This document shows positions 17,501 to 20,500 of a stretch of DNA of 64,000 bases, one piece after another. The DNA lies in the NCBI RefSeq assembly GCF_058153355.1, contig NZ_CM177019.1. One strand, written 5' to 3'. Made by a program: the position numbers. Position 1 is the first letter of the stretch, and the number at the start of each line of letters is the position of its first letter.

Positions 17501-20500
17501 GCGCAGTGGACGTTCAAGCAGCCAGGTTTTACCGTCGAGTGTCAGCGTCTGTTTGCCTTCCTCTACGACGGTGCCGACACCAGTTGGCGTGAGAAAACCA
17601 CCAAGTCCAGCTCCACCACAGCGAATTTGCTCAATCAATGTACCTTGCGGTACGAGAACGACCTCCATTTCGCCAGAAATCATGCGCCGTCCGGTTTCCG
17701 GGTTGGTGCCGATATGTGAAGCAATTACTTTGCGGACTCGACCATTGACGATGAGCGGACCGATGCCGGTATCAACAAACGCGGTATCATTGGCTATCAA
17801 TGTCAGGTCGCGAACGCCAGATTCCAGTAATGCTTCCACCAGGCGGGATGGAGTGCCAATTCCCATAAATCCGCCCACCATGATGGTCATGCCGTCACGA
17901 AAGAAGCCGGAGGCGTCTTGTAATGTCATCAATTTTGTTTTCATTATTTATCCCTCTTGCATACACCGTTGTGGGTACAGTCAGGGAATAGCAAGGGGAG
18001 TGCCAGAATGAAAATGTTTGATATTGTTTTTTAACTTATTGAATAGTAAAGAATAAATAAGGTGGGGATTAAGAGGTTGAATGAACGGCTATGCAGAAAT
18101 TTGCGCACTGTGCAAATTTCTGCATAGCAAGTTTTGGCGTTATACATCCGCCGGATCGATACCGTATTCCTGGAGTTTATACATCAATGCACGGCGACTG
18201 ATGCCCAGCATTAAAGCAGTGCGGGTTCGGTTTCCTTCTTGTTGTTCCAGCACTTCCATAATGATGCGTTTTTCGACGCGTTTAATTTCCTCTTTTAAAT
18301 TACGCTCACCGACAGGGGCTGTTTTTGCTTCACCAGCACTACAGACTGGCTGACGAATCTGCGGCGGAAGATCCTCAGAAAAAATGATCGGGCCTGAATT
18401 CATCACGACGGCGCGTTCAATAACGTTGGAAAGCTCTCGAATATTTCCCGGCCATGACCATGCGGTAAGCAGTGACATTGCCATCGGATCGATGTCGATA
18501 ATATCGCGCTGATTCTCACTACTGAATTTTTGCAAAAAGTGATTAGCTAACAGGGAAATATCTTCCCGGCGATCGCGCAGAGGCGGCAGTATTAAATGAA
18601 TAACGTTAAGGCGATAAAAGAGATCTTCACGGAAGGTGCCTTCTTTCACCATTGCCTGCAAGTCGCGGTTGGTGGCAGCAATGATGCGGATATCAACTTT
18701 TATGGTCTGATGGCCGCCAATCCGTTCAAATTCCCGTTCCTGCAGAATGCGTAGTAATTTGGCTTGCAGTACCAGCGGCATTTCGCCAATTTCGTCGAGG
18801 AGCAGAGTACCTTCGTTGGCACGTTCAAATAATCCCTGACGCAAGGTTTGTGCACCAGTAAATGCGCCTTTTTCATGACCAAACAGTTCACTTTCGAGCA
18901 ACGATTCCGGCAGTGCCGCGCAGTTGACTTTAATGAACGGCCCCTTTGCCCGCCGCGAATTGTAGTGAATCGCTCTGGCAATCAACTCTTTCCCGGTGCC
19001 GCTTTCACCGCTAATCAAGACGCTGGCCTGAGAAAGGGCAATTTTGGCGGTGTCTTTGCAGATGTCCATCATCGCCGGGCTGTTGGTGAGAATGTGCCCC
19101 CATTGCCAGCTGGTGCTAAGTGCCTGGTGCAGATGACGGATCTCTTTTTTCATTGACTGGAGTTGTAAAGCGCGCTGAACGATTAAATTCAACTCATCGA
19201 GATCAAACGGTTTGATAACATAGTCGAAGGCTCCGCAGCGTAGTGCTTCGACGGCGGTTTCCACTTCAGCATAGGCCGTCATCAGAATAACGGGTGTCCG
19301 TGTCTCATGGCTGCGCATCTCCTTTAGTGCCTTGATGCCGTCCATCTCTGGCATGCGGGTGCGACAAGAAGTCGTCCAACATATTGTTTTGATAAATTAT
19401 TTATATAAAACCAACTATTCCATTAGTTGTAGCCTACTGAGGCAGGCAAAGCTGGTAACGGCTCTGTCTGAAGCCCTTGGGACAATGTAGCTTAGCAAAT
19501 ATTGCTTCAGTTAATCGTGAGAAAACCTGATCGCTACAAGCATCATGCGGCGAGAGCGCTAGGCTGGGCGGTATGGTTAACATAGTGAACTGTCGTTAAA
19601 CGTCGTAACAGAGAACGAGCCAAAGATGCTGATAGGCTTGCACCAAAAGGTAAGGGGTAAGGCTATTCCTGTTCGTAGTGGGAATACATGGACAATAACT
19701 CCCCCGGCGGATAGACAGAACCTAACCCGTTCTTTGTATGTTGGTCGGAACTTGGTAAGCCCGAATTCTCGCCCTAGTGGCAGGGGCACCGTAAGGCAAA
19801 CTGATGAGAATGCGGGTAAAGGAGGATGGAAAAAGCGAAAGCCGGACTGTAATCGTGCGGATAGAGGTTCAATATTTGCCTTAACGGGAAACCGTGCTGA
19901 CTTCCATCTGGTCTTTAATTGCGAAACATCTGCGAAGGTTTCTTTGGATGACATGTATGAAAATTACATCTAACAATGTAACTGCGGTCATCAACGGAAA
20001 AGGTTGGCATTCCATTAACTGGAAGAAATGCCATCAACACGTTAAAACCATACAGACAAGAATCGCAAAGGCGGCATGTAACCAGCAATGGCGTACAGTC
20101 GGTAGATTGCAACGATTGCTGGTTCGCTCATTCAGCGCCAGAGCACTGGCGGTGAAACGAGTTACGGAAAATAGCGGGCGTAAAACCCCCGGAGTTGATG
20201 GTCAAATCTGGAGTACTCCAGAATCAAAATGGGAAGCGATATTCAAACTCAGGCGAAAAGGGTACAAGCCCCTACCGCTAAAAAGAGTTTTTATACCCAA
20301 ATCTAATGGCAAGAAAAGACCATTAGGAATCCCCGTCATGCTTGACAGGGCAATGCAGGCCCTGCATCTGCTGGGATTGGAGCCTGTATCGGAAACTAAT
20401 GCAGATCACAACAGTTATGGTTTCAGACCAGCGCGATGTACGGCTGACGCCATTCAACAGGTATGTAATATGTATAGTTCCCGGAACGCCTCGAAATGGG

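Follow-up and report, generated by a model that had tools for sequence, protein, structure and literature searches.

An antisense group II intron splits atoC beside an intact ato control region and predicts a silent atoDAEB operon

The strain analysed here retains a complete control region for the atoDAEB operon and all of the structural genes, and its activator gene atoC is split by a group II intron inserted in the antisense orientation. By sequence and by analogy with K-12, the operon is very probably silent, a prediction that both lines of evidence support well. We hold with considerable confidence the overall explanation in which an orthologous promoter (Pato) is left with an atoC gene that the antisense intron would have killed, so that the intact atoDAEB genes stay uninduced.

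Within the 64-kb stretch of DNA that was analysed (the window), the ato genes all lie on the minus strand, and the gene order rcsC-atoS-atoC-atoD-atoA-atoE-atoB-yfaP is the same in K-12 and in strain EC42405. The Pato control region occupies the complete atoC-atoD intergenic interval (17945–18139, minus strand), bounded by the atoC stop codon (18140) and the atoD ATG (17944). It is 100% identical to the corresponding region of EC42405, whose genes on either side carry the annotations atoC and atoD. Alignment identifies it as a fully intact orthologue of the atoDAEB control region characterised in E. coli. The first-pass annotation had called this region intact, and each of the elements that it described is found in its place. 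The Shine-Dalgarno (SD) sequence of atoD, GAGGG (17952–17956, minus strand), has an anti-SD duplex energy of −6.3 kcal/mol and is conserved in K-12.

The AtoC enhancer (UAS), located at 18088–18128 by an inverted-repeat search and by its match to K-12, consists of two inverted 20-bp half-sites set 1 nt apart. Its arms, 18088–18107 (GCTATGCAGAAATTTGCGCA) and 18109–18128, are 20 nt each and complementary at 19 of 20 positions (95%), in agreement with the earlier description of a near-perfect 20-bp inverted repeat of the AtoC type. The 64 kb contain exactly two copies of the 20-mer GCTATGCAGAAATTTGCRCA, one per strand and both inside the enhancer, against a chance expectation of about 0.02 matches even with three mismatches allowed. 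The site equals the K-12 enhancer at 40 of 41 positions and fits the published motif GCkATrCrrnnATTTrCwCA (PMC3118216); the K-12 palindrome is complementary at 18 of 20 positions, and the difference comes from a single base change (AAATTTC here, AATTTTC in K-12). We took a Pato enhancer to be a 40-bp palindrome about 100–150 bp upstream of the promoter and counted the present site as one, its arms lying 83–123 bp upstream of the −24 element and about 110–150 bp upstream of the sigma-54 promoter.

The sigma-54 promoter has the −24/−12 element TGGCAC-TCCCC-TTGCT (TGGCACTCCCCTTGCT; 17990–18005), an exact consensus match that is identical to K-12. This element, previously placed at 17991–18005, reads from 18005 to 17990 on the minus strand, which is the coding strand, with the atoD ATG following 46 nt downstream. 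No other match to TGGCAC-N5-TTGCW occurs in the window; 0.13 exact matches would be expected by chance in 64 kb. These alignments identify both cis elements as orthologous to the AtoC site and the sigma-54 promoter that have been verified experimentally in K-12. There, Pato is induced by acetoacetate in an AtoC- and RpoN-dependent manner (PMC7618054; PMC3118216), and the 40-bp palindrome is the verified AtoC site governing acetoacetate inducibility, as summarised in PMC3118216 from Matta et al. (2007, J Bacteriol 189:6324). By analogy, the same AtoC- and RpoN-dependent induction is predicted for the promoter described here.

Between enhancer and promoter lies an AT-rich spacer of 82 bp (18006–18087, minus strand) that, in the alignment with K-12, contains sites resembling the IHF consensus. 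One of them, at 18044–18032 (ATTCAATAAGTTA), shares 11 of 13 bases with its K-12 counterpart (ATTCAATTAGTTA); the alignment of the two marks two mismatches, one of them a T against an A. The sequence WATCAANNNNTTR matches with one mismatch. The spacer is probably bent by IHF, the binding of which is predicted from these matches. It is 74% identical to K-12, compared with 97% for the flanking elements (Fisher p = 4.7e-6), and the control region as a whole is 80–90% identical in 3,436 E. coli genomes. The divergence from most E. coli might be read as a sign of a degraded promoter; we rejected this reading, since only the spacer diverges and the functional elements have been kept. The region shares with K-12 Pato its position between atoC and atoD, the sigma-54 element, the enhancer, the SD sequence and the atoD start, and differs from it in the spacer and in having a broken cognate activator gene.

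The genes on either side of the lesion are undamaged. On the minus strand, atoD (17282–17944, 220 aa) is identical to AtoD of EC42405 at the protein level and carries two substitutions relative to K-12, with no stops; atoA (16632–17282, 216 aa), atoE (15313–16635, 440 aa) and atoB (14098–15282, 394 aa) follow, and atoS (21881–23707, minus strand, 608 aa) has 10 substitutions relative to K-12 and two relative to EC42405. All five have the K-12 length and lack internal stops, which bears out the first-pass statement that they are full length. Since they are, the insertion event looks recent, and AtoS is now a kinase without its cognate regulator.

The intron (19359–21717, plus strand) is 2,359 nt long and splits atoC within codon 56, one codon past the phospho-acceptor Asp55. 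It was delimited by its GTGCG start (19359–19363) and by two Rfam hits on the plus strand, RF02012 at 19411–19558 (112.5 bits) and RF00029 at 21641–21717 (65.5 bits), the latter ending at the intron 3′ end; the element thus has the ribozyme domains, the 5′ GUGYG end and the 3′-terminal domain V/VI of a group II intron. An intron-encoded protein with a maximal open reading frame of 580 aa (19894–21636, plus strand) contains the Pfam domains RVT_N, RVT_1, GIIM and HNH, which supply the RT, maturase (X) and En domains of a mobile intron, and its relatives are annotated ltrA. The intron is 99.6% identical to a copy on the E. coli plasmid CP057208.1 and belongs, as a complete mobile group II intron, to the type usually found in the hok/mok locus of IncF plasmids. 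The first-pass annotation did not give the orientation of the intron, which here is antisense to atoC. Because of this orientation the intron cannot splice from atoC mRNA, and the disruption is irreversible at the RNA level; antisense insertions of group II introns are described as non-conditional disruptions, the intron complement being unable to splice (PMC3898094). A sense-oriented, spliceable intron that would leave AtoC functional was rejected as a candidate, since the ribozyme hits and the open reading frame of the intron-encoded protein all lie on the strand opposite to atoC.

The coding sequence is split at 19358/21718. The 5′ fragment (21718–21884, minus strand) comprises codons 1–55 and two bases of codon 56 and matches only positions 1–50 of the Pfam Response_reg profile; its reading frame continues into the antisense intron and stops at 21513. 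The 3′ fragment (18140–19358, minus strand) runs from the last base of codon 56 to codon 461 and matches only positions 52–109. Residues 1–56 are encoded at 21884–21718 and residues 57–461 at 19357–18143, so that the break falls between positions 50 and 52 of the receiver profile and no single open reading frame holds a complete receiver domain. The earlier claim that AtoC is disrupted by the intron is thereby confirmed. When the intron is removed in silico, the repaired gene encodes an AtoC of 461 aa with the same sequence as in EC42405.

A lesion found in a single assembly could be unrepresentative, reflecting an assembly chimera, a subpopulation or a passage variant, with the strain remaining effectively atoC+. 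A search of 5,426 complete E. coli genomes did not find the exact atoC/intron junction, its exact 33-mer has no match in metagenome contigs, and related intron copies are plasmid-borne, which makes a repeat-induced mis-join conceivable. Against this, both junctions are base-perfect, the intron ends are canonical (GTGCG...CCCGAC), and no atoC bases were duplicated, deleted, lost or gained, the flanks being contiguous in intact genomes. The insertion site also resembles the plasmid homing site, with 10 of 13 exon bases matching (positions −13 to −1) and two of the three mismatches being A-to-G changes, which are tolerated as G·U pairs. Perfect junctions together with likeness to the homing site are the signature of a real retro-insertion rather than of mis-assembly, and we regard an unrepresentative insertion as extremely improbable. 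Because the junction is absent from both searches, no lineage can be defined for it.

With the insertion taken as real, the activity of what remains of atoC has to be considered. The 3′ remnant contains an open reading frame of 404 aa that starts at Met58 (ATG at 19354) and retains the Pfam domains Sigma54_activat (1.1e-75), AAA_lid_14 (6.4e-28) and HTH_8 (1.2e-14), all intact, so that both the AAA+ domain for sigma-54 interaction and the Fis-type HTH for DNA binding are there, and the palindrome that it would target is intact as well. If this AAA+/HTH remnant (Met58–Val461, or a shorter product of an internal start) were made at a low level, it might act independently of signal and render Pato constitutive or leaky; its transcript could arise by read-through from the promoters of atoS/atoC, or begin in the intron, at an outward-facing promoter in its 5′ end, which is AT-rich on the antisense strand. 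The receiver exerts negative control in DctD and NtrC1, and by analogy may do so in AtoC. I129S, the substitution of the classic constitutive allele atoC(Con), lies in the linker between receiver and AAA+ domain (PMC5699524) and is compatible with negative control by the receiver. Receiver-less AtoC is, moreover, reportedly active when overproduced, and is said to support AtoSC signalling under that condition (Theodorou et al. 2011, Amino Acids 40:421, as cited in PMC5699524 and PMC7618054).

Expression of such a remnant, however, faces several obstacles. The Met58 start has an anti-SD duplex energy of +0.4 kcal/mol, against −4.0 to −7.4 kcal/mol at the six authentic starts in the ato genes, and no SD sequence was found there by this measure; the sole strong SD-like sequence in the remnant, AAGGAG before Met70, abuts its ATG without spacing. 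No alternative start was found for the reading frame, which has an in-frame TAA 14 codons upstream, and an upstream or alternative start was rejected on account of this stop and of the absence of any other start codon and of an SD sequence. After the stop of the 5′ stub at 21513, about 2.15 kb of untranslated antisense-intron RNA would favour Rho-dependent polarity, and a product carrying half a receiver domain would be likely to misfold. A consensus scan of the intron minus strand found no sigma-70-like promoter; the scan was crude and the antisense 5′ end is AT-rich, so an outward promoter may exist in the intron. We consider leaky or constitutive activity from the remnant very unlikely. Slightly less likely still is the stronger proposal that the intron converted atoC into a receiver-less, signal-independent activator, made either by read-through or from an intron promoter facing outward at the antisense 5′ end, that drives atoDAEB constitutively through the undamaged enhancer and sigma-54 promoter, a natural equivalent of atoC(Con) made by a mobile element; were it true, the strain would be able to use butyrate and valerate.

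Expression of atoDAEB might also proceed without AtoC, through another sigma-54 activator (NtrC, ZraR, GlrR and others, from solution or bound at the palindrome), a second atoC copy or sigma-70 read-through. Overproduced enhancer-binding proteins (bEBPs) can cross-activate sigma-54 promoters from solution, a general behaviour that would favour the first of these routes. A scan found no intrinsic terminator between atoC and atoD, which would favour the last. The second route gains from the fact that the genome was inspected over 64 kb, so that an extra atoC could sit elsewhere, for example on a plasmid. A second copy in the window itself was sought and rejected: the only other match to atoC there is the receiver domain of RcsC, at 36% identity. 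The K-12 data also argue against AtoC-independent expression. Pato is silent there in an atoC- strain, Pato-GFP showing no acetoacetate response in atoC-, atoS- and atoSC- backgrounds, and according to the authors the promoter is activated by no other two-component system (PMC7618054); an atoSC deletion strain gives no AtoC binding signal at Pato (PMC3118216). Taken together, AtoC-independent expression of the operon has a very slim chance of being correct.

The preferred explanation, loss of AtoC through the antisense intron with a consequently uninduced operon, would operate as follows. In the normal circuit AtoS phosphorylates AtoC at Asp55 upon acetoacetate, and AtoC~P assembles on the palindrome, where its AAA+ domain opens the closed sigma-54 complex at the expense of ATP. 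In this strain a mobile intron appears to have reverse-spliced into the bottom strand of atoC at codon 56, at a look-alike of its plasmid homing site. The atoC transcript would then carry the intron complement and be unspliceable, translation would end in the intron after a receiver stub of 56 residues, and the downstream AAA+/HTH part has no ribosome-binding site of its own. Sigma-54 holoenzyme forms no open complex without the ATPase of a bEBP. Lacking a functional enhancer-binding protein, RNA polymerase-sigma-54 would therefore be expected to stay closed at Pato, and the intact atoDAEB genes to remain uninduced.

The closest engineered parallels are the K-12 derivatives JW2214 (Keio, ΔatoC) and BW28878 (ΔatoSC), in which AtoC is likewise lost with Pato and atoDAEB intact; they show no Pato response to acetoacetate (PMC7618054) and no short-chain fatty acid catabolism (PMC3118216). 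The present lesion differs in being a natural insertion that leaves atoS intact, together with a promoterless, SD-less open reading frame for the AAA+ and DNA-binding domains. It shares with targetron disruptions an antisense group II intron and an unspliceable transcript (PMC3898094), but whereas a targetron is engineered and retargeted, this is a natural event in which a wild plasmid-borne intron entered an ectopic look-alike site. A literature search for atoC carrying a group II intron or occurring as a pseudogene returned nothing relevant. About 1,500 of the 5,426 complete E. coli genomes (about 28%) have neither the ato control region nor atoC, and lineages without the locus share the expected phenotype, no AtoC-dependent short-chain fatty acid catabolism. 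Unlike in those lineages, the structural genes and cis elements here are undamaged, so that atoC in trans would reverse the loss. The control region is well studied, and the case is an ordinary strain-specific atoC knockout rather than a new kind of system; because ato loss is common, it will not surprise a specialist.

The significance of the finding is mostly limited to the annotation of the strain. If the prediction holds, the isolate cannot induce the catabolism of acetoacetate and short-chain fatty acids. It may also show the secondary phenotypes of atoSC mutants, affecting motility, cPHB synthesis and the ornithine-decarboxylase antizyme role. The wider AtoC-dependent functions rest on a weaker literature (the antizyme role, motility via fliA, and ChIP with over-expressed AtoC). 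As a small and mildly interesting natural example, the locus illustrates how a plasmid-borne hok-locus intron, inserting ectopically at a look-alike site, can inactivate a regulator gene on the chromosome. With its operon and cis elements undamaged, the strain would provide a clean natural host for complementing atoC or for studying Pato reporters.

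In this genome, the ato genes lie on the minus strand in the order rcsC-atoSC-atoDAEB-yfaP, and atoC, which encodes the NtrC-family sigma-54 activator of atoDAEB, is found in two pieces. Codons 1-55 and two bases of codon 56 occupy 21884-21718 (minus strand), and the rest of the gene occupies 19358-18140 (minus strand); between them is a 2,359-bp group II intron (19359-21717, plus strand; 5' GTGCG), in line with the disruption by an intron noted in the first-pass annotation. The insertion falls within the receiver domain, which is cut one codon past Asp55, between positions 50 and 52 of the Pfam profile. 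Removal of the insert in silico yields a 461-aa AtoC that is the same as that of EC42405, an E. coli strain with an intact atoC and an identical control region, and that carries two substitutions relative to K-12. Because this repaired frame is intact and the two flanks directly adjoin in other genomes, the insertion is, as read from the sequence, clean and free of later secondary decay. The remaining genes, which had been taken to be full length, are indeed of K-12 length and without stops: atoB (14098-15282), atoE (15313-16635), atoA (16632-17282), atoD (17282-17944), and the gene for the cognate kinase, atoS (21881-23707; 608 aa), all on the minus strand.

The ato locus (13300-19358) is unusually far from sequenced E. 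coli; its top complete-genome match, at 99.3%, is to two Korean MFDS isolates (cattle, food). Nucleotide identity to K-12 is only 93% for atoB and 97-98.6% for atoC and atoS, and this unevenness suggests a mosaic or recombinant locus. At the position of yfaS, a split pseudogene in K-12, there is one unbroken 1,539-aa ORF (6974-11593, plus strand), the EC42405 counterpart of which is annotated as an alpha-2-macroglobulin family protein.

The insert matches Rfam models RF02012 (112.5 bits) and RF00029 (65.5 bits, ending exactly at 21717) on the plus strand, and contains an open 580-aa ORF with RVT_N, RVT_1, maturase (GIIM), and HNH domains. The intron is thus antisense to atoC, and an atoC transcript, which would hold only its complement, cannot be spliced; targetrons set up for non-conditional disruptions share this configuration in the target gene (PMC3898094). 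The usual home of this intron family is the hok/mok toxin-antitoxin locus on IncF-type plasmids of E. coli, E. albertii, Salmonella, Klebsiella, and others. The nearest copies are likewise on enterobacterial IncF-type plasmids, in or adjoining hok/mok (Hok/Gef, DUF5431), among them copies with identities of 99.6% (10 differences) for E. coli sheep-farm plasmids, 97.2% for an E. coli cow plasmid, 97.7% for E. albertii, and ∼79% for Salmonella. In atoC, the 13 bases that end the 5' exon (CTCTGGCATGCGG) share 10 positions with the plasmid homing site (CTCTGGCCTACGA). Of the three that differ, two are A-to-G changes, which would still allow pairing with U of the intron RNA. Given this resemblance, the event looks like a natural, rare case of ectopic retro-insertion, the look-alike site lying by chance on the bottom strand of atoC. 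No atoC/intron junction was found among 5,426 complete E. coli genomes or in the metagenome contigs searched, and the intron itself is present in only two complete E. coli assemblies, on plasmids in both.

The interval annotated as the control region is exactly the atoC-atoD intergenic region (17945-18139, minus strand), and both elements assigned to it are borne out. The arms of the near-perfect inverted repeat (18088-18107 and 18109-18128) are 20 nt each, 1 nt apart, and 95% complementary. The half-site GCTATGCAGAAATTTGCRCA occurs twice in 64 kb, both times within this interval, where chance would give ∼0.02 matches even with three mismatches permitted; it fits the AtoC motif GCkATrCrrnnATTTrCwCA (PMC3118216). 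The AtoC site verified by experiment is, in the summary of Matta et al. 2007 given in PMC3118216, a 40-bp palindrome that consists of two inverted 20-bp sites and lies upstream of the atoDAEB start; it governs both the binding of AtoC and the inducibility of the sigma-54-dependent promoter by acetoacetate. The -24/-12 sigma-54 element TGGCACTCCCCTTGCT (18005-17990, minus strand) is the sole exact match to TGGCAC-N5-TTGCW in the window (0.13 expected by chance).

We aligned the control region with those of K-12 MG1655 and EC42405. K-12 Pato, the atoDAEB promoter, shares its -24/-12 element, 5' UTR, Shine-Dalgarno sequence, and atoD start with this genome; the enhancer has one base different, which renders the palindrome in this genome more symmetrical. 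Identity to K-12 is 97.6% for the enhancer and 96.7% for the promoter/UTR but only 74% for the 82-bp spacer between them (18006-18087), with mismatches at 21 of 82 spacer positions versus 3 of 102 in the functional elements (Fisher p = 4.7e-6); this contrast is a clean phylogenetic footprint of enhancer and promoter. The spacer has also diverged further than third codon positions in the ato genes on either side (82-96% identical). It is K-12-like in most E. coli, with only ∼16 genomes at least 95% identical to this intergenic allele, and its divergence accounts for why, across the interval as a whole, identity to most E. coli genomes is only 80-90%. Old allelic replacement is a possible origin, as is relaxed constraint on all but bendability. 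The spacer retains sites resembling the IHF consensus, one of which (18044-18032) has 11 of 13 bases as in K-12, and we infer that IHF is bound here.

Promoter opening by the sigma-54 holoenzyme requires an enhancer-binding ATPase. In K-12, the response of Pato-GFP to acetoacetate is absent in atoC-, atoS-, and atoSC- strains, the authors' conclusion being that Pato is not activated by any other two-component system (PMC7618054), and the AtoC ChIP signal at the palindrome is absent in an atoSC deletion strain (PMC3118216). Together with the need for an ATPase, these data support the prediction that in this strain, with the activator lost and atoDAEB and its cis elements intact, induction would be absent. 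A silent operon would not follow if the 3' remnant of atoC (Met58-Val461, 404 aa), which keeps complete Sigma54_activat, AAA-lid, and HTH_8 domains, were expressed as a receiver-less, signal-independent activator. Two points in the literature, the constitutive atoC(Con) allele, an I129S change in the inter-domain linker (PMC5699524), and the reported activity of an overproduced AtoC without its receiver (Theodorou et al. 2011), make such a protein conceivable, and the expression signals of the remnant were therefore examined. The Met58 ATG lacks Shine-Dalgarno complementarity (+0.4 kcal/mol, versus -4.0 to -7.4 for six genuine ato starts), no ATG, GTG, or TTG separates it from an in-frame TAA 14 codons upstream, and the sole strong Shine-Dalgarno-like sequence, ahead of Met70, abuts its ATG with zero spacing. 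On the minus strand within the intron, a consensus scan detected nothing resembling a sigma-70 promoter. Additionally, transcripts from the atoS/atoC promoters would face ∼2.15 kb of untranslated antisense intron past the stop of the 5' stub at 21513, a length that would invite Rho-dependent termination. The sequence evidence thus disfavors a constitutive AtoC made by the intron, which we consider very improbable, and the 64-kb window holds no second atoC copy. The stub ORF (21513-21884, minus strand) would encode 56 AtoC residues, including Asp55, fused to 67 antisense-intron residues; because it is translationally coupled to atoS through an overlapping ATGA, it probably yields a small junk peptide.

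Beyond the predicted silence of the operon, AtoC is reported to act as an ornithine-decarboxylase antizyme (PMC1784093), to control fliA and motility (PMC10963238), and, when over-expressed, to occupy 22 further ChIP sites (PMC3118216); that AtoC-dependent functions outside atoDAEB are also lost is plausible but less firm. With atoS intact, an acetoacetate-sensing kinase would persist without its cognate regulator. An AtoS-MinD interaction has been reported (PMC10963238), and the orphan AtoS could retain some role.

The promoter and enhancer are already known, and the effect of atoC loss is already documented. The control region is present in 3,923 of 5,426 complete E. coli genomes, and at least 80% of the locus in 3,899; ∼28% of complete genomes are missing the control region and atoC. 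The disruption is a strain-specific knockout, correctly recognized in the first-pass annotation, and of low general interest, which only a constitutive receiver-less AtoC created by the intron would, if true, raise. Of modest interest is that an intron of the hok locus entered, naturally and in targetron-like fashion, a regulator gene on the chromosome.
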